64,000 nucleotides of DNA from the NCBI GenBank assembly GCA_964485815.1, contig CAZAJX010000003.1, positions 12,040 to 76,039 on the forward strand. The letters run 5' to 3'. The stretch comes from an uncultured Oscillospiraceae bacterium. GTDB taxonomy: Bacteria; Bacillota; Clostridia; Oscillospirales; CAG-382. Shown in pieces: positions 3,469-44,673 of the stretch (positions are counted from its first letter, which is position 1; the number at the start of each line of letters is the position of its first letter). The notes below the pieces were generated by a model. That model worked only from the letters and a program-made list of their open reading frames with translations, was not told the origin of the DNA and did no database searches. A program made the translations under genes and the position numbers.

Positions 3469-3644
3469 ATGAGGAATGAGGAATGCGACGCGCCGCGAAC
3501 GCGCCGCTAAATGAGGAATTTCGGAAGATTTTTGTTCGTAGAACAAAAATCAACCATCCCGGGGTTCCCCAAAAACGCTATGCGTTTTTGGGGTGGGTCA
3601 TTCATCATTTCTCATTCATCATTCCTCATTCCTCATTCCTCATT
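3468..3644 (+). repeat. Heptamer-armed repeat, copy R3 (long form with extra hairpin module)
   Basis: AATGAGG x2, then AATGCGACGCGCCGC-GAA-CGCGCCGC hairpin and TAAATGAGGAATTTCGGAAG. AT hairpin ATTTTTGTTC-GTAG-AACAAAAAT, CAACCAT, then an extra module CCCCAAAAACGC-TAT-GCGTTTTTGGGG. Right arm is six xxTCATT units (3603-3644). Sits between hisS and aspS. Confidence 0.85.
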
Positions 3645-3678: not shown

Positions 3679-5460
3679 ATGGCAGAATTACTTGGAAATT
3701 CAAAAAGAACTCACTATTGCGGTGAGTTTACTATAGAAAACGTAGGCGAGCGCGCCTGCGTAATGGGCTGGTGTCAAAGACAGCGTGACCTTGGCTCGCT
3801 CATCTTTATTGACCTGCGCGACAGAAGCGGTATCGTTCAGCTCGCTTTTGACGAAAACACCGAAAAGGCTGTTTTTGATAAAGCCTTCGGCGTAAGAAGC
3901 GAATACGTGCTGTGCGCTTCCGGTGTGGTAAGGGAGCGTTCCTCCAAAAACCCCCAGATCCCCACGGGAGATATCGAAATTGCGGTAGACGAACTTAAAA
4001 TTCTCTCCGTATCCCAGACAACACCCTTTGAAATTACCGAAAACTCCCGCGCAAACGAAGAACTGCGCTTAAAGCACCGTTATCTCGACCTGCGCCGCCC
4101 CGATCTGATGCAAAATCTGCTGTTCAGACACAAGGTTGCCAAGGTTACCAGAGATTATTTCGATGAAAACGGATTTGTGGAAATAGAAACCCCCATTCTC
4201 ATTCGCTCCACTCCCGAGGGAGCCCGTGACTATCTGGTTCCCAGCCGTATAAGAAAGGGCGCGTTTTACGCTTTGCCCCAGTCCCCCCAGCTTTACAAGC
4301 AGCTTTCCATGGTTGCGGGATTCGACAGATATATGCAGATCGCCCGTTGCTTCCGCGATGAGGACCTGCGTGCTGACAGACAGCCCGAATTCACCCAGAT
4401 CGACTTTGAAATGTCCTTCGTTCAGATGGAGGACGTGCTGAATATCGGTGAAGGCTACATCCGCCGCGTGTTTAAGGAAACTCTCGGTGTTGACGTACCC
4501 GCCATACCCCGCTACACATACCGTGAATGTATGAACCGCTACGGCAGCGATAAGCCCGATATGCGATTCGGTATGGAGATCGTTGATATTTCCGATATAG
4601 TTAAGGGATGCGATTTCTCCGTATTCACCTCCGCAGTTGCCGCAGGCGGCAGTGTAAGAGGTATAAACTGCAAGGGTTATGCCGAAAAGCTTACCCGTAA
4701 AGAGATAGACAAGCTCACCGAGTACGCAAAAGGATGCGGCGCAAAGGGTCTGGCTTGGATAAAGAAGGCGGGCGGAAACACCACCTGCTCCTTTGGCAAG
4801 TTTATGACAGAGGACGAGCTTAACTGCATCTGCACCCGTCTTGACTGCACCGACGGCGACGTGGCGTTTATTATCGCAGATACAAACGATAATGCGGTTC
4901 TTACCCAGCTGGGTCAGCTCCGTGTCGAGGCGGCAAACAGACTTAACGTTCCCAGAGAGGGATATTGCTTCCTGTGGGTAGTGGAATTCCCCTTCTTCGA
5001 AAAGGATGCGGAAACCGGCGAATGGCTGGCAATGCACCACCCCTTCACCGCACCTCTTGATGAATGCCTGCCTTATCTTGAAACGGATAAAGGTTCGGTA
5101 CGCGCAAAGGCGTATGACCTTGTGCTTAACGGAATTGAGCTGTCTTCAGGCTCTATCCGTATAACCGACCCTGCTCTGCAGGCAACCATTTTCCGTCTGC
5201 TGGGACTTTCCGATGAAGAAGCACAGCAAAAGTTCGGTTATCTGCTTGATGCATTCAAGTACGGCGCACCTCCTCACGGCGGTATGGCGCTGGGACTGGA
5301 CAGATTGGTAATGCAAATGATCGGCGCACCCACCTTGCGTGACGTTGTGGCGTTCCCCAAGGTATCCAACGCATCCGAACTTATGACAGATTGCCCTGCC
5401 GAAGTACCTGCACAGGCACTTTTGGATCTGGGTATCAGTATAGACAAACAGGAGAAATAA
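3679..5460 (+). CDS. aspS: Aspartate--tRNA ligase
   Basis: MAELLGNSKRTHYCGEF...WCQRQRDLGSLIFIDLRDRSG (OB fold), FRDEDLRADRQPEFTQID (motif 2), GGMALGLDRL (motif 3). The ORF-track start at 3511 reads through repeat R3. ATG at 3679 follows GAGAGGCAAAC. Confidence 0.95.
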   Translation: MAELLGNSKRTHYCGEFTIENVGERACVMGWCQRQRDLGSLIFIDLRDRSGIVQLAFDENTEKAVFDKAFGVRSEYVLCASGVVRERSSKNPQIPTGDIEIAVDELKILSVSQTTPFEITENSRANEELRLKHRYLDLRRPDLMQNLLFRHKVAKVTRDYFDENGFVEIETPILIRSTPEGARDYLVPSRIRKGAFYALPQSPQLYKQLSMVAGFDRYMQIARCFRDEDLRADRQPEFTQIDFEMSFVQMEDVLNIGEGYIRRVFKETLGVDVPAIPRYTYRECMNRYGSDKPDMRFGMEIVDISDIVKGCDFSVFTSAVAAGGSVRGINCKGYAEKLTRKEIDKLTEYAKGCGAKGLAWIKKAGGNTTCSFGKFMTEDELNCICTRLDCTDGDVAFIIADTNDNAVLTQLGQLRVEAANRLNVPREGYCFLWVVEFPFFEKDAETGEWLAMHHPFTAPLDECLPYLETDKGSVRAKAYDLVLNGIELSSGSIRITDPALQATIFRLLGLSDEEAQQKFGYLLDAFKYGAPPHGGMALGLDRLVMQMIGAPTLRDVVAFPKVSNASELMTDCPAEVPAQALLDLGISIDKQEK

Positions 5461-39886: not shown

Positions 39887-40250
39887 AAATGAGGAATGAT
39901 AAATGAGGAATGATGGAAAGTTTTTGGTCAGCAGACCAAAAACATCATATTTTCTCAAACTCACCAAACTACCGTAGAAGAAGGTAAAACTCACGGTTTT
40001 CGATACGTAAAATAGGAGAAGGTAGGACGCCGGGTATTTAGCGCAGAAAACGATTTTTAGGCGTGTGGGGCTGTACAAAGGTACTGCCCACCGACTAAAA
40101 ACGTTTAAAAACGCGAATAAAAAAGGAATTCGTGTTTTCACGAATTCCTACATTAATAGTGCCTCAAACAAATGTCAGCGAAAACAGTGACGGTTTTGCG
40201 GTACATCTTCTTTTAACTTTTTTCGCGTTTTGTTCTGCGGTAAATAACCA
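39887..40250 (+). repeat. Heptamer arm R10 fused to extended mosaic repeat S3
   Basis: AATGAGG, AATGATA, AATGAGG, AATGATG, then the GTTTTTGGTC-AGC-AGACCAAAAAC hairpin. It is then colinear in outline with S1: CGGTTTTCGATACG, ACGTTTAAAAACGCGAATAAAAAAGGAATTCGTG...CACGAATTCC, and TTTTTTCGCGTTTTGTTCTGCGGTAAA. More diverged than S1 versus S2. Confidence 0.65.
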
Positions 40251-40254
40251 AGTC

Positions 40255-41151
40255 CTACAGATCGGCGGTGTCGTGGGACTTGTAACCCTGCCCGAGTATC
40301 TCCGTAGCATTTGTTACTATAAGGAACGCACCGTTATCCTCCGCACGTATAAGCTCTTTTGCTCTGGGAAGCTGTTGCTTTTTAAGCACGCACATTATTA
40401 CGGGCTGATTTCTGCCGGTGTATCCGCCGTGGGAGTGAACGATGGTTGCGCCCACGTCCAGCTCCTTCAGAAGCCGCTGGGTGATAACGTCGTTTTTCTC
40501 GCTCATTATATATATCATCTTCGCGCTGTCAAAGCCGTAAAGCAGCTTGTCCACCACGATGGTCTGAACAACTACGCAAACGCCGGCGTATATGGACAAT
40601 TCGAACCGCTTAAAGGAGATAGCGGATGCGATAATAACCATAATGTCGAATATCATAAAGATAGTGCCGGTGGAGATGTGCTTGAATTTAAGACGCATCA
40701 ATTTTACCAGAATATCCGTACCGCCGGTGGATGCGCCTGCGTGGAACATAGTGGCAATTCCTATGGAAACCAGCACGGGACCCGCGAAAGCGGCAAGCAT
40801 AGGATCGTTGGTGGCGGCGCCGATATATTGGGATCCCAAATTCATAAAAAGGGAAGACATTATTATGGCGTATATGGTGGTAAAAAGGAACTTGAATCCG
40901 AATTTCCACGTGGCGATTATCAGCAGGGGCACGTTAAGTATGATTATCCAGGTACCCGTGGGGAAAAGTCCGATCAAGTGGCTGAGTATAATGGATACAC
41001 CCGAAATTCCCCCCGATGCAAGGGCGTTGGGGTCCAAAAACAGGAAAACTCCCGCCGCGTATGCCGCACAGCCGATGGTTATCATCACCATGTTCACGAG
41101 AAACTGTACTTTTTTATTTTTGAATCTGTGAAAAATATTCACCTTTTTCAC
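40255..41151 (-). CDS. YitT-family membrane protein (DUF2179 C-terminal domain)
   Basis: Five or six TM helices with GG(I/T)SG motifs, and a C-terminal soluble domain (HSHGGYTG...VLKKQQL). Confidence 0.8.
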   Translation of the reverse strand: MKKVNIFHRFKNKKVQFLVNMVMITIGCAAYAAGVFLFLDPNALASGGISGVSIILSHLIGLFPTGTWIIILNVPLLIIATWKFGFKFLFTTIYAIIMSSLFMNLGSQYIGAATNDPMLAAFAGPVLVSIGIATMFHAGASTGGTDILVKLMRLKFKHISTGTIFMIFDIMVIIASAISFKRFELSIYAGVCVVVQTIVVDKLLYGFDSAKMIYIMSEKNDVITQRLLKELDVGATIVHSHGGYTGRNQPVIMCVLKKQQLPRAKELIRAEDNGAFLIVTNATEILGQGYKSHDTADL

Positions 41152-41224
41152 CTCTGTATATATTTTGGGGCGGAAAATATTATATCACCCGAGTAAAATT
41201 TTGTCAATAAAGAGGAAAATACAG

Positions 41225-41566
41225 TCAATCTTTTTTCAAAGTTTTACAGCTTGATATCAGCATTCTTCTTATCCGTCCGCAGAGATTTCTGTTGTTTTTG
41301 AAGGTTTGCTCGTCAATGGCTCCGGTGTTCAAAAGAATCTGAAGCCAGCCTTCCGTTTCGGTGCATTCTTTTATGGAAATCTCGAATTTCGAAATCATAT
41401 CGGCTTTGCTGTGTCCGTAATTTGCCTCGCGGATATTTGCATAAATACTGCTTGAACTTTTGCGGATTTGAAAAATCGTGTTTGAAGGAGCCTTTGTGCT
41501 TTGACAAAGCAATTCTATATCGGTTGCAAGCTGTTCGGAGTAGATCAATAAATAATTTTTTGACAC
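41225..41566 (-). CDS. Four-helix-bundle protein (23S rRNA intervening-sequence protein / Avd-like family)
   Basis: 113 aa. IRKSSSSIYANIREANYGHSKADMISKFEISIKECTETEGWLQIL matches the family signature (S..NI.EG....S..D....I..KE..ET..WL). GTG start 7 nt after GGAGGG. Confidence 0.75.
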   Translation of the reverse strand: MSKNYLLIYSEQLATDIELLCQSTKAPSNTIFQIRKSSSSIYANIREANYGHSKADMISKFEISIKECTETEGWLQILLNTGAIDEQTFKNNRNLCGRIRRMLISSCKTLKKD

Positions 41567-41585
41567 AACTAACCCTCCGTAAAAA

Positions 41586-41815
41586 TCAACGGCGCAAGCC
41601 GTTGTATATCATCAAGGCGAAAGCCTTGTATATCATCAAAACGAAGTTTTGTATATCATCAAGCCGCAGGGAATACACGCTGACGCGTGATGAGATACAA
41701 GGGCGGTTTGCCGCCCTTGATGATATACACCGCACTTCGTGCGTTGATGATATACCAAGCCTTATGCACCCCGAAAAAAACGCTTTGCGTTTTTGGGGGA
41801 CCCCGCTGCGGCTTG
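41586..41815. repeat. Array of three direct and three inverted 14-mers separated by short stable hairpins
   Basis: TTGTATATCATCAA at 41602, 41626 and 41649. Inverted copies are GTGATGAGATACAA at 41687, TTGATGATATACAC at 41717 and TTGATGATATACCA at 41744. Spacer hairpins: CGGC-GCAA-GCCG, GGC-GAAA-GCC, AAC-GAA-GTT, GGGCGG-TTTG-CCGCCC, CGCAC-TTC-GTGCG. Terminal CCCCGAAAAAAACGC-TTT-GCGTTTTTGGGG module. Confidence 0.85.
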
Positions 41816-41818
41816 GAT

Positions 41819-41853
41819 AAAAAAATCCTCGTTCTATTGAACGAGGATTTTTT
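41819..41853. terminator. Bidirectional intrinsic terminator downstream of tRNA-Val
   Basis: AAAAAAA-ATCCTCGTT-CTATTG-AACGAGGAT-TTTTTT. Confidence 0.75.
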
Positions 41854-41930
41854 TGGTGGGGGCTACAGGACTCGAACCTGTGACCCCCTGCTTGTAAGGC
41901 AGGTGCTCTAACCAACTGAGCTAAGCCCCC
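41854..41930 (-). tRNA. tRNA-Val (anticodon TAC), CCA encoded
   Basis: The reverse complement is GGGGGCTTAGCTCAGTTGGTTAGAGCACCTGCCTTACAAGCAGGGGGTCACAGGTTCGAGTCCTGTAGCCCCCACCA. It folds as a cloverleaf: 7-bp acceptor, GCTC/GAGC D stem, CCTGC/GCAGG anticodon stem with loop CTTACAA, ACAGG/CCTGT T stem with GTTCGAGTC. Confidence 0.95.
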
Positions 41931-41945
41931 GTGTTCGACTTGTAA

Positions 41946-41974
41946 AGTATATCACAAGTCTTTTCGTTTGTCAA
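41946..41974 (-). promoter_or_regulatory. Sigma-A promoter for tRNA-Val
   Basis: The reverse complement reads TTGACA, 17 nt (ending TGA), TATACT. This predicts a leader of about 9 nt. Confidence 0.55.
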
Positions 41975-41977
41975 TAC

Positions 41978-42520
41978 CTAATTGAAATAAAAATTAGAAA
42001 TTATTTTATCAAAATCAGCGCTCACGCTTTCATAGTCGGTTTCGCTGGCGGTGAGGGTGATTATGTACGCAGAATAACCGCCTACAGCTACTACCTGAAC
42101 GAAATGATAGGTGCTTCCGTCTACCTTTGCGGTGTAGTGGTATTTACCCGCAGTGTTTCCGTCCACCTTTATCTCTTCGCTCTTTACAGCCTGGTATTCG
42201 TTAAGCTCTTCGGTAAGTCTTTCCTCGTAGGTCTTCCAGTAATCCTTGTAATTCTGGGCGTCGGTACCGTATTTGGTAACGGAAAGGCTGGCGTATGTGC
42301 TTACCATGGAAGAAGAGGAGGTGTCCTTAAGGAGGGACAGCATACCGTCGTTTCTGTCAACGCTCCATTCCAGAGGATAGCACATAGAAACCGCAAGTAT
42401 TTCGTTTTTAACGTATGTCATTCCTTCGGGCACGTTAACGTCAGGCGTTTCGCCGCTTCCGCAGGCGCAAAGAGAGAATATCATACAAGCCGCAATAAGG
42501 GCAAAAATTATCTTTTTCAT
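41978..42520 (-). CDS. Lipoprotein, unknown function
   Basis: MKKIIFALIAACMIFSLCACGS lipobox. The ORF-track start at 42574 is an upstream extension. Confidence 0.7.
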   Translation of the reverse strand: MKKIIFALIAACMIFSLCACGSGETPDVNVPEGMTYVKNEILAVSMCYPLEWSVDRNDGMLSLLKDTSSSSMVSTYASLSVTKYGTDAQNYKDYWKTYEERLTEELNEYQAVKSEEIKVDGNTAGKYHYTAKVDGSTYHFVQVVAVGGYSAYIITLTASETDYESVSADFDKIISNFYFN

Positions 42521-42723
42521 TTGTTCTTCCTCGCTTTCTCCCCGTATTATATACCACCCTTTCAAAAAAGGCAATAGACGGAATGTGAATTTTTTATGTT
42601 TTTAGGGGAAAAAGACACGTTTTTCCTCTCTTTTTTAAACGAATTCATCAAAAATACTTTATTTTTTCACCTTTTCGTGTTAGAATAAAATGATAAGTTA
42701 TTGCTTTTAAGGAGGCGGGGAAA

Positions 42724-44673
42724 ATGGATAAGTTCAAGCTGGTATCCCCCTTTGCGGCGACGGGTGACCAGCCCGAGGCGATACGCGCTCTTTGTGAGGG
42801 GCTGGACAAGGGTTATACCGACCAGACTCTGGTAGGCGTTACCGGTTCGGGAAAGACCTTTACCATGGCAAACGTTATTGCCGCGGCAAACCGTCCCACG
42901 CTGGTGCTTGCCCACAACAAGACTCTTGCAGCCCAGCTTTGCTCGGAATTCCGCGAATTCTTTCCCGAAAATGCGGTGGAATACTTCGTTTCCTATTACG
43001 ATTATTACCAGCCGGAAGCCTACGTTCCCGGCAAGGACATTTATATCGAAAAAGACGCTTCCATAAACTCGGAAATAGACAAGCTCCGCCATTCCGCCAC
43101 CACGGCGCTTATGGAAAGGCGCGATGTTATCGTGGTTTCTTCCGTTTCCTGCATATATTCTCTCGGCGATCCCGAGGAATACGGCAGAAACGTTATCTCC
43201 CTCCGTCCGGGAATGATATTCCCCCAGCGTGACCTTATAAAACGGCTGGTGTCCCTGCAGTTTTCCCGCTCCGATATCGGCTTTGACAGAAACAATTTCC
43301 GTGTGCGGGGCGACGTTATAGAGATATTCCCCCCCAATTCGGACAGATACGCATACCGCGTGGAATTGTTCGGGGACGAGATAGACCGCATCTCTCAGGT
43401 GGACACGGTTACGGGTGAGATAAACGCCCGCCTTTCCCACGCCGCCATATATCCCGCATCCCATTACGTTACCTCCGAGGAAAAGCGGGAAGCGGCAATA
43501 CACGAAATTTTAGAGGAATTGGACGAAAGAATAGAATATTTCGAAAAACAGCAAAAGTACGTGGAAGCACAGCGCATCCGCGAGCGTGTGCTGTTTGATG
43601 CGGAGCAAATACGGGAAATGGGCTTTTGCTCGGGTGTGGAAAACTATTCCCGTGTGCTGGCGGGCAGAAAGCCGGGCAGTACGCCTTATACCCTCCTTGA
43701 CTTTTTCCCCGCAGATTATCTGCTTTTAATTGACGAAAGCCACGTTACCGTGCCTCAGGTACGGGGAATGTCGGGCGGAGATTACGCCAGAAAGAAAAAT
43801 CTTATAGATTACGGCTTCCGTCTGCCCTCGGCGTTTGATAACCGCCCTCTTAATTTTAATGAATTTTTGGATAAAAAAGGGGCAACCCTTTACGTTTCCG
43901 CCACACCTGCCCCCTTTGAAAAGGAGCGTTCACAGCAGATCGCGGAGCAGATAATCCGCCCCACGGGACTTTTGGATCCCGAGGTGGAGGTGCGCCCCGT
44001 AAAAGGTCAGGTAGACGATCTGCTTACCGAAATACGCGCCCGCGCGGAAAAAGGGGAGCGTGTGCTGGTTACCACCTTAACCAAAAAAATGGCGGAGGAC
44101 CTTTCGGAATACCTTATCTCCGCCGACGTAAAGTGCCGTTATATGCACCACGATATCGACGCTATGGAGCGTATGGAGCTTATACGCGACCTGCGTAAGG
44201 GCGTTATCGATGTGCTGGTGGGAATAAACCTGCTCAGAGAGGGCTTGGACCTGCCCGAGGTTTCCCTTGTGGCTATTCTGGATGCGGACAAGGAAGGCTT
44301 TTTGCGCAGCGAAACAAGCCTTGTTCAGACAATCGGCAGAGCCGCCCGCCACGTAAACGGCAGGGTAATTATGTACGGGGACAAGATAACGGGCTCTATG
44401 GAAAGAGCCATAAACGAAACCAACCGCCGCCGTAAGATACAAAAGGAGTATAACGAAAAGCACGGTATCACTCCCAAGAGTATTGTAAAAGAGCTTCGTG
44501 ATCCTATCGCTATCACGGGCGCGCCCACCGAGCAGGCGGACCCCAAGAAGATGAGCGAAAGCCAAAAGAAGAAGCAAATAGAAGCGCTTACAAAGCAAAT
44601 GAAGGAAGCGGCAAAGGTGCTGGATTTCGAAACCGCCGCCGCTCTGCGTGACAGAATTAAACGTTTAATGTAA
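42724..44673 (+). CDS. uvrB: Excinuclease ABC subunit B
   Basis: [17 protein letters not shown], helicase motifs, the [14 protein letters not shown] beta-hairpin region, and a C-terminal UVR domain ([16 protein letters not shown]). Confidence 0.97.

Follow-up and report, generated by a model that had tools for sequence, protein, structure and literature searches.

What is an ordered array of short repeats doing between a tRNA gene and a gene for a small four-helix-bundle protein? We address this question for one such locus, positions 41225-41974 of a 64,000-nucleotide stretch of DNA from an uncultured Oscillospiraceae bacterium (assembly GCA_964485815.1, contig CAZAJX010000003.1; the whole stretch is referred to here as the window), in which the array separates a tRNA-Val gene from a gene of the PF05635/TIGR02436 family. 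Two parts of the answer can be given plainly: the array and the PF05635 gene form one unit, and the tRNA is not incidental but is the address of the element. The remaining part concerns function and here the reading that we favour, with about even confidence, is that the array is a docking site for its cognate PF05635 ring protein, is read as folded DNA and stands at the head of a cassette of tRNA 3'-flanks that also exists in gene-less copies.

The components of the locus, all of which lie on the minus strand, are given below in the order in which they follow the tRNA promoter. This order of promoter, tRNA-Val, terminator, array and GTG-initiated four-helix-bundle gene, put forward in an initial annotation of the sequence, is confirmed by the coordinates and by the match to PF05635.

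41946-41974, minus strand: promoter of the tRNA-Val gene, TTGACA-17-TATACT, with 11/12 matches and a TG preceding the -10 box.
41854-41930, minus strand: tRNA-Val(UAC) gene with encoded CCA (77.7 bits); the element begins at the next base.
41819-41853, minus strand: terminator hairpin of the bidirectional type, A6-stem-loop-stem-T7, with 16-nt arms that are 100% complementary.
41806-41818, minus strand: ATCCAAGCCGCAG, the 5' strand and loop of hairpin H1 and also the left inverted repeat (IRL), complementary to the centre (inverted-repeat detection, covariation).
41761-41805, minus strand: CCCC/GGGG hairpin module, apparently from a second small repeat family, inserted within the H1 loop and not found in the orthologous array of the sister species G004.
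41687-41760, minus strand: arm 1 (D arm), made of the H1 3' strand GCTTGG and three units (41744-41757, 41717-41730 and 41687-41700) with hairpin spacers whose loops are of the G(N)NA type.
41658-41688, minus strand: centre, with the hairpin ACGCGTCAGCGT, the degenerate unit GTATTCC and CTGCGGCTTGAT, the right inverted repeat (IRR), complementary to IRL (inverted-repeat detection, covariation).
41602-41662, minus strand: arm 2 (I arm), three exact inverted units TTGATGATATACAA (41649-41662, 41626-41639 and 41602-41615) with hairpin loops that are complements of G(N)NA.
41581-41604, minus strand: last hairpin CAACGGCTTGCGCCGTTG followed by ATTTTT, terminator-like and holding the terminal partial unit TTGATT (promoter scan).
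41225-41578, minus strand: ribosome-binding site GGAGGG (41573-41578) and the GTG-initiated (41566) PF05635/TIGR02436 gene of 113 amino acids (41225-41566; profile match).

The array proper (41818-41581) has the tRNA on one side and, beyond the PF05635 gene, a gene for a YitT membrane protein. Followed in the direction of the tRNA, the T-run of the terminator gives way to ATC and to hairpin H1 (CCAAGCC-GCA-GGCTTGG, split here by the nested insert), after which the units of arm 1 read GTATATCATC, GTATATCATC and GTATCTCATC with a hairpin behind each; the centre reads GTATTCC-CTGCGGCTTGAT and is followed by three GATGATATAC units, again with a hairpin behind each, and the array ends in GATTTTT. 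The element is a dyad, ATC-H-(unit-H)3 ... (unit-H)3-GAT, in which each of the mirror-image arms consists of three GTATATCATC units with small hairpins between them, and ATCCAAGCCGCAG of H1 is complementary to CTGCGGCTTGAT of the centre. There are seven hairpins (H1, three per arm region and the last, terminator-like one, with H1 counted apart) and not the five first described. The six-unit array itself is real, since the 14-mer TTGTATATCATCAA has 7 matches in the window against 0.40 expected, a number reached in 0/100 shuffles. It is found exactly on the plus strand at 41602, 41626 and 41649 (spacing 24 and 23 nt) and with 1-2 mismatches on the minus strand at 41744, 41717 and 41687 (spacing 27 and 30 nt), so that the six units span 41602-41757. 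Three direct and three inverted units at these spacings had been proposed and are present, but in the direction of the gene it is the imperfect copies that come first and the exact ones second.

The 113-aa protein is a secure member of its family, scoring 66.3 bits against PF05635 (cut-off 33.8, E 3e-18) and 72.7 bits against TIGR02436 (cut-off 24). The AlphaFold2 model has a mean confidence (pLDDT) of 92.7, with helices at residues 5-23, 28-50, 54-80 and 86-112, though only one of the five models is confident. A Foldseek comparison gives a TM-score of 0.85 to 2RLD and 0.83 to 2GSC, both pentameric, and 0.78 to Avd, at 14% identity. PF05635 relatives form pentamers (PMC4990558, citing Lin et al. 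2006) and, by analogy with these and with the five chains of 2RLD, the protein would be a homopentameric ring. Its orthologue at L003 has an ATG start at the position of the GTG here, and the array-linked homologues are 77-82% identical to the window protein. Where dS is measurable, dN/dS is about 0.04, most pairs being saturated at synonymous sites; the sequences indicate that protein and units alike are under purifying selection. The defence models of PADLOC gave no match for the protein.

Is the tRNA part of the system? The source genome (G000; 1.85 Mb in 77 contigs, a 91%-complete assembly) holds four such arrays, after tRNA-Val(tac), tRNA-Tyr(gta), tRNA-Val(gac) and tRNA-Glu(ttc), and all four directly follow a tRNA gene and a terminator. 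A DNA search found array matches in 22/61 relatives of the same genus, family and order, with up to 20 per genome, and a pattern scan of one genome per species returned at least 120 stretches in public genomes, so the array is far from unique; among the scan matches listed, nearly all come from metagenome-assembled genomes (MAGs) of gut or rumen Clostridia (Acutalibacteraceae, Oscillospiraceae, 'Eubacteriales' and Christensenella). From a profile built on tRNA-oriented copies we obtained 95 non-overlapping, near-full elements. Of these, 52 immediately follow a called tRNA or tmRNA gene (24 kinds in all), and 18 lie behind '...CCA + A-run' remnants or duplicated tRNA 3' ends; the remainder are elsewhere (20) or at contig ends (5). 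In 36/36 tRNA-adjacent copies no more than 2 nt separate the tRNA end from the start of the A-run, and the opening ATCC of the array lies another 32-46 nt on. Identical terminator sequences, with compensatory changes in the stem, recur behind different tRNAs in different genomes, and the terminator therefore belongs to the element rather than to the tRNA gene.

The layout of three plus three units is kept in 61/95 copies, the number of units varying in the others, and single arms are found facing either way with respect to the terminator. Arrays of 6-12 units in one orientation only were seen at L080, L046, L068 and L044, which suggests, from the sequences, expansion by slippage and that single arms can stand alone. 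At the locus itself, Rfam returned only tRNA matches.

Does the PF05635 gene belong with the array? The proposal that the two be treated as a unit, and the expectation that homologues elsewhere would neighbour such arrays, are both borne out. At 19 loci, about a fifth of the copies, a close homologue (E 1e-72 to 1e-30) starts just past the array, and this arrangement is seen behind at least 12 different tRNAs (Val(tac, gac, cac), Glu, Trp, Arg(ccg, acg), Tyr, Met, Leu, Ser and Thr). Seven of the 61 relatives have a protein of at least 79% identity, arrays being present in 7/7 of them, and 47/47 array-less genomes are without a PF05635 gene of this type. More generally, 75/84 PF05635 loci of the relatives carry a 7-mer at least four times in their flanks, against 12/84 when the flanks are shuffled. 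The source genome has four PF05635 genes, each in or beside its own array and each with a different unit:

Window gene: unit GTATATCATC.
C16:32263-32571: units GTGAAGTT / AACTTCAC.
C19:34493-34792: AATGAGGAAT upstream and ATTCCTCATT downstream, so that inverted heptamer arrays bracket the gene in the layout of an rRNA intervening sequence.
C59:693-986: CTTTTCACT / AGTGAA, after tRNA-Glu(ctc); a pseudogene (TAA), behind which the 14-nt tRNA 3' end ACGGGTCACCAAAA is repeated in an att-like manner.

The unit follows the protein. Two loci share their top 7-mer in 70% of cases where the proteins are at least 75% identical, in 17% at 60-75% identity and in 2% below 60%, an association reached in 0/1000 permutations. 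The match extends over whole genomes: G000 and G004, whose proteins are 96-100% identical, have 7 and 16 GATGATATAC pairs and 0 variant pairs, whereas G002 (63% identical protein) and G040 (58%) have 15 and 10 GATKMCATRC pairs and 1 and 0 of the ATC type. The unit of the G002/G040 type is GTAT-GKM-ATC, and it is found at many loci. At the orthologous locus between tRNA-Val(tac) and YitT, the units are of the ATC type in G000 and G004 and of the GG(A/C) type in G002 and G005. On this comparison the unit is best described as GTAT-NNN-ATC, its central letters varying in step with the protein. Common descent by itself makes linked sequences co-vary and this is part of the explanation for the correlation, but a match that is genome-wide goes beyond the common descent of linked DNA.

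In what form is the array read? The initial annotation had envisaged either that direct units pair with inverted ones in a long interrupted stem or that the units are binding sites for a protein. The predicted strand fold does pair D1:I3, D2:I2 and D3:I1 in a stem that carries side hairpins (z = -6.7 as RNA and -9.2 as DNA). The covariation does not follow the fold: D:I helices are 94.7% paired against 95.0 ± 0.2 in shuffled columns, and the conserved C of the third unit (D3) is mismatched (C/T) in 33/52 copies. The stem was therefore rejected as a selected RNA helix, and we take the units to be conserved as words and not as partners. Across arrays, column identity is 94% in the units, 55% in the spacers and 33% in the 3' flank.

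The spacers behave differently. They were scored one by one for hairpins and not on the MAFFT alignment, which was dropped for this purpose because it places indels asymmetrically. Although each spacer position holds 26-37 distinct sequences, with lengths of 10-36 nt and with modules shuffled among positions, 77-96% of the spacers are end-to-end hairpins of at least 4 bp, against 2-10% when shuffled. The hairpin shape is thus kept by compensatory change while its sequence is free, and selection on the shape calls for a single-stranded form. A further signal links IRL and the centre, with 38 double changes against 12 expected (0/500 shuffles reach this) and at least eight co-varying sequence variants discernible by eye; H1 co-varies as well, so that the three segments, IRL, H1 and centre, are linked.

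The loops bear on the question of DNA or RNA. In arm 1, G(N)NA loops outnumber their complements by 35 to 3, and in arm 2 the complements prevail by 41 to 0 (Fisher p = 2.6e-19). Arm 2 is a true mirror image of arm 1, loops included. Since the arms are alike only on opposite strands, the form that is read is likely to be locally folded or unwound DNA and not one RNA; mirroring of the loops is unpredicted by a single sense RNA and is predicted by a symmetric DNA complex.

These observations can be assembled into the following proposal. The segment 41581-41853 would be the non-coding head of a small cassette that settles, in gut Clostridia, on the base directly behind the CCA end of tRNA and tmRNA genes, its hosts being MAGs of the Oscillospirales type. 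The head would bring its own bidirectional terminator and two mirror arms of about three full GTAT-NNN-ATC units with partial units and inter-unit hairpins and, in many cases, would add an outward promoter that has the truncated last unit, TTGATT, as its -35 box. The 113-aa PF05635 ring would act in trans, docking on each arm through the repeated 10-nt units, which the spacer hairpins, by folding out, would bring side by side, and its partner is most likely locally folded or unwound DNA. Gene-bearing copies would be the autonomous form; the other three arrays of the source genome and about 80% of the copies elsewhere would be gene-less, non-autonomous or relic copies that match the variant of the resident protein. 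Binding, the DNA form, the effect of binding (control of a promoter, spread or maintenance, or both) and the mode of copying are all points that we infer.

Several observations weigh against this proposal. Seven further genomes have arrays without an intact cognate gene, though three of them hold gene fragments. No target-site duplication is visible at the tRNA junction and no recombinase or transposase was identified for the cassette; the mirror-image arms are present, but the gene lies outside both of them and is not bracketed as it would be by transposon ends. In the window, the last hairpin with its ATTTTT is terminator-like and sits just ahead of the ribosome-binding site so that, with no promoter of its own, the expression of the window gene is uncertain. 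The strand bias of wobble pairs, G.T against A.C, which in itself speaks for the mirrored design (10:3 in arm 1 and 2:5 in arm 2), is drawn from small numbers. In the sister families the arms mirror each other too, but the polarity of the loops relative to the array centre is the opposite one. This refutes a general rule by which G(N)NA loops always face the centre, and for that reason we place no weight on stable d(GNA) mini-hairpins, which are known for their stability. The part of the protein-unit correlation that is due to descent, noted above, and the published view of the motif Gut-1 as RNA, considered below, count on the same side.

What happens at the tRNA flanks over time can be followed at orthologous sites. 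The locus from tRNA-Val(tac) to YitT is shared by seven species of the genus and its contents differ:

G000 and G004: array and gene.
G002: a variant array alone, joined to the same YitT promoter.
G005: a variant array and another gene.
G006: one arm and the other gene found in G005.
G007: a one-unit relic.
G003: a different array type, GTGAAGTG / CACTTCAC.

An empty orthologous site was sought in the genus, and 7/7 tRNA-Val(tac) sites were found to hold an array or a relic. At tRNA-Tyr, G004 has an array of the ATGAAGC / GCTTCAT type with its own terminator immediately behind the CCA, and this insert displaces the first arm of the GTATATCATC array that is intact at tRNA-Tyr in G000. The contents of the tRNA-Val and tRNA-Tyr sites imply that incoming elements insert at the CCA, so that older ones are shifted away from it. 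A duplicated tRNA 3' end at an array with its gene was met only at another array type, that of C59.

The tRNA flanks appear, from their sequences, to be stacked with successive insertions. At L222 (G004, tRNA-Thr/tRNA-Tyr), at about 290-520, the terminator stem of the other array type extends into the acceptor end of the tRNA (CCACCAATAG...CTATTGGTGG), and the element sits between the tRNA and the leftover second arm of the GTATATCATC array. Gene-less arrays of units and hairpins follow tRNA-Gln (C48:~700-994) and tRNA-Ser(tga) (C64:~3900-3992); one of them has AACATCATT linkers between its hairpins and the other consists of a single arm of ATTCCTC heptamers built exactly like the right arm at C19. 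A module of 130-230 nt that starts with GGGATTCGAAC... and resembles an antisense T-arm lies between the tRNA terminator and a duplicated tRNA 3' end at C39 (tRNA-Arg(acg) and tRNA-Trp), C64 (tRNA-Ser(gct)) and C12 (tRNA-Ser(gga)), and also at L053, L111, L039, L069 and L027; the GTATATCATC element can follow the duplicated tRNA end.

The nested insert in H1 of the window belongs to the same subject. Its exact 15-mer occurs once in the window and a copy of 85% similarity lies near 3560-3595. The proposed tie of the array to a mosaic repeat system through this module is limited to a nested insertion in H1, and the 45-nt module is missing from the orthologous array of G004. Inserts of the CCCC type are found likewise in the H1 loop at L010, L053 and L091 in other genomes, and a further similar copy of the module lies at C36:10166-10201 of the genome. 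By its appearance the CCCC...GGGG module would represent a second family of small repeats, with hairpin loops as its targets.

The array-linked PF05635 gene is followed, in many other genomes, by a variable gene whose start overlaps its ...AAGGAG..ATGA end. This overlap was seen at L007, L092, L110, L111, L026, L123, L120, L056 and L057, and examples of the downstream cargo are small lipoproteins, nucleotidyltransferase-like proteins and ATPase-like proteins. The cargo appears, from the overlapping reading frames, to be translationally coupled to the PF05635 gene.

A bolder form of the proposal, which we advance only tentatively, is that PF05635 proteins are sequence-programmable ring readers of arrays of units and hairpins and that protein and array together are a new self-propagating cassette that homes to the base behind the CCA of any tRNA or tmRNA gene without a recognisable recombinase, which would also explain Gut-1 and the intervening sequences (IVS) of 23S rRNA. 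The arrays would then be both the ends of the cassette and the docking sites, and the gene-less arrays its non-autonomous copies. The IVS that carry an open reading frame (ORF), in Coxiella and Leptospira, share with our element the S23p/PF05635 family, inverted arrays of short units and a stable-RNA gene as host. The Coxiella IVS has its S23p/PF05635 gene inside a stem with tandem heptamers and has been proposed to be a once-mobile element (PMC4990558); IVS are regarded as selfish elements with a mechanism that is unsettled (PMC4990558). The paralogue of the source genome at C19 is bracketed by inverted heptamer arrays in just this manner. The window element differs in lying after a tRNA gene and not inside an rRNA helix, in having both arms upstream of the ORF, in its 10-mer units with hairpins and in that most copies are gene-less. 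It is not an IVS in helix 25 or 45 of 23S rRNA, as Rfam found no rRNA in 40000-43500 or in the whole window at the gathering threshold, and the excision stem of an IVS, with the ORF within terminal inverted repeats, was found at C19 and not at the window locus.

Two further comparisons concern the protein. Avd (PDB 4DWL, 8UB7) is, like the window protein, a four-helix bundle of the same or a neighbouring Pfam family and a nucleic-acid-associated pentamer; the window protein, at 14% identity, is closer to the free-standing 2RLD and 2GSC. The Avd-like label given initially therefore fits fold and family, but it goes no further: the 91%-complete assembly has no match to the reverse transcriptase profile PF00078, nor were template or variable repeats found, and without a reverse transcriptase in the assembly the locus is not a diversity-generating retroelement (DGR), so that a link to DGRs or other retroelements was rejected. 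TRAP is a ring oligomer that reads (G/U)AG repeats in the trp leader, with one unit per subunit. The likeness, a ring oligomer and a series of short repeated units, is one of analogy only, for TRAP has an unrelated fold and reads plain RNA with spacers of 2-3 nt, whereas the present array has hairpins for spacers and mirrored arms, with DNA as the likelier partner.

The rival that survives best, though we judge it rather unlikely, is that the array is a structured RNA, transcribed by read-through from the tRNA or as the leader of the gene, in the manner of a non-coding RNA of the Gut-1 type or of a long branched hairpin cut by RNase III, as in the IVS of 23S rRNA that bear PF05635, and that the protein binds this RNA. 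The closest known relative of the array speaks for it. Gut-1 (RF01706) was rated an RNA by Weinberg et al. 2010 (PMC2864571). The GTATATCATC array is not a member by score: there was no match at E <= 1 over 40000-43500, nor at E <= 10 over 41560-41860, against a gathering score of 50 bits that positive controls exceeded (L176 with 64.4 and 51.4 bits, L153 with 56.8 and L177 with 50.1), and since the array falls below the model, membership was rejected. Sister arrays with the units GTGAAAT, ATGAAAT and AGTTATAT, which lie beside other PF05635 genes and tRNAs, do exceed the cut-off, and one sister element scores as Gut-1 on both strands, from which it follows that Gut-1 is one arm of such an element. 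One arm here likewise has four short units and three hairpins of free sequence, and both come from the gut; the unit differs from that of Gut-1, which was described as a single orphan non-coding RNA. The GTATATCATC array is a relative of Gut-1 with another unit, and in the papers open to search Gut-1 is tied neither to tRNA flanks nor to a mirror-image partner arm nor to PF05635 genes.

A structured RNA would also account for the D:I fold with side hairpins (z = -6.7) and for hairpins kept by compensatory change; that IRL can pair within H1 or with the centre, with all three co-varying, has the logic of an RNA switch, and the window has no promoter between array and gene. Avd, a relative in fold, is part of an RNA-protein complex (8UB7), and the stems of IVS are substrates of RNase III (PMC4990558). 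The position of the array argues the other way. It is placed behind a strong terminator of the bidirectional type, and at its end lies a promoter, TTGATT-N16-18-TAnnAT and often with TG, in 25/88 copies against 0 when shuffled, the terminal partial unit TTGATT being the -35 box of this outward promoter; behind a terminator and ahead of a promoter is the least transcribed position there is. The D:I pairing, with its conserved mismatch, lacks covariation, the loops of arm 2 are G(N)NA complements (0 against 41) with G.T exchanged for A.C, which is unexpected of one sense RNA, and single arms stand in either orientation relative to the terminator.

The same promoter invites a simpler idea, to which we give a slim chance: that PF05635 is an ordinary transcription factor, the units are its operators, flanking and overlapping the outward promoter, and the gene-less arrays its regulon ahead of accessory genes, the apparent mobility being recombination among tRNA flanks. 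The promoter, TTGATT-N17-TGnTATAAT, is far above the shuffled level, the next ORF is co-directional in 70/88 copies, the unit variant fits the resident protein throughout a genome and inverted sites are typical of operators. Many copies are nevertheless without a promoter at their end, and this includes the window and its orthologue, where no -10 box follows TTGATT. Operators in duplex DNA need neither hairpin spacers of free sequence (10-36 nt) nor strand-biased loops, the strict CCA address and the replacement by other array types are left unexplained, and this fold has no known DNA-binding motif.

Repetitive extragenic palindromic (REP) sequences and bacterial interspersed mosaic elements (BIME) with their REP-associated tyrosine transposases (RAYT), miniature inverted-repeat transposable elements (MITEs) and foldback elements are high-copy, extragenic hairpin repeats, the gene-less copies of which need a factor encoded elsewhere. 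Our array resembles them as an extragenic, hairpin-forming repeat with inverted arms of short tandem units and in its many copies, and it might be moved by another enzyme such as a Y1 HUH transposase, with the PF05635 gene as a passenger; we regard this as very improbable. The source genome does encode one Y1 (IS200/RAYT-type, PF01797) protein, at C46:10187-10543, and PF01797 is somewhat commoner in array-bearing relatives (9/14 against 12/47), but the array-rich G004, G002, G005 and G040 have no match to it. The hairpin sequences are free here, unlike the conserved palindromes of REP, the tRNA CCA address is fixed, no target duplication is seen, the units co-vary with the PF05635 protein and not with another gene, and no reverse transcriptase is present; the REP/RAYT link was rejected on the array-rich relatives that lack PF01797 and on the non-conserved palindromes. 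Carriage by phage or plasmid was rejected as well, as the plasmid search gave no match to the element and only 1/26 pattern matches in viral contigs is a true element (beside tRNA-Arg), the other 25 being unrelated tandem repeats.

That the arrays are functionless repeat DNA, accumulating in tRNA flanks by slippage and gene conversion, would suit the variable unit number, the shuffled modules and the relics, yet it is hardly credible when the units are 94% identical where synonymous sites of the neighbouring gene are saturated, the hairpins are kept by compensatory change and the layout of three plus three persists in 61/95 copies.

The docking of a cognate PF05635 ring on folded DNA remains the reading that we prefer, and it can be approached with simple reagents, namely the 113-aa protein and a 70-nt arm. 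A natural specificity pair is to hand: units of the ATC type (GTATATCATC arms) with the G000-type protein and units of the GKM type (GTATGGAATC arms) with the 63%-identical protein of the G002 type. We found no paper that joins PF05635, Gut-1 and tRNA flanks. Structures have been solved for PF05635, a very large family that is not known to have a role beyond DGRs; Gut-1 has stood as an orphan motif from 2010 onwards, and where the rRNA IVS came from has been a question for over 30 years. All three are brought together by this locus and its relatives. If the array and its protein prove to be an operator or insulator and nothing else, the mode of protein-DNA (or protein-RNA) recognition would still be new, in that hairpins serve as the spacers between sites. 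If homing to tRNA ends without a known recombinase is true, it would be a new mechanism of mobility or gene capture and a frequent cause of the variable genes that lie beside tRNAs in gut Clostridia.

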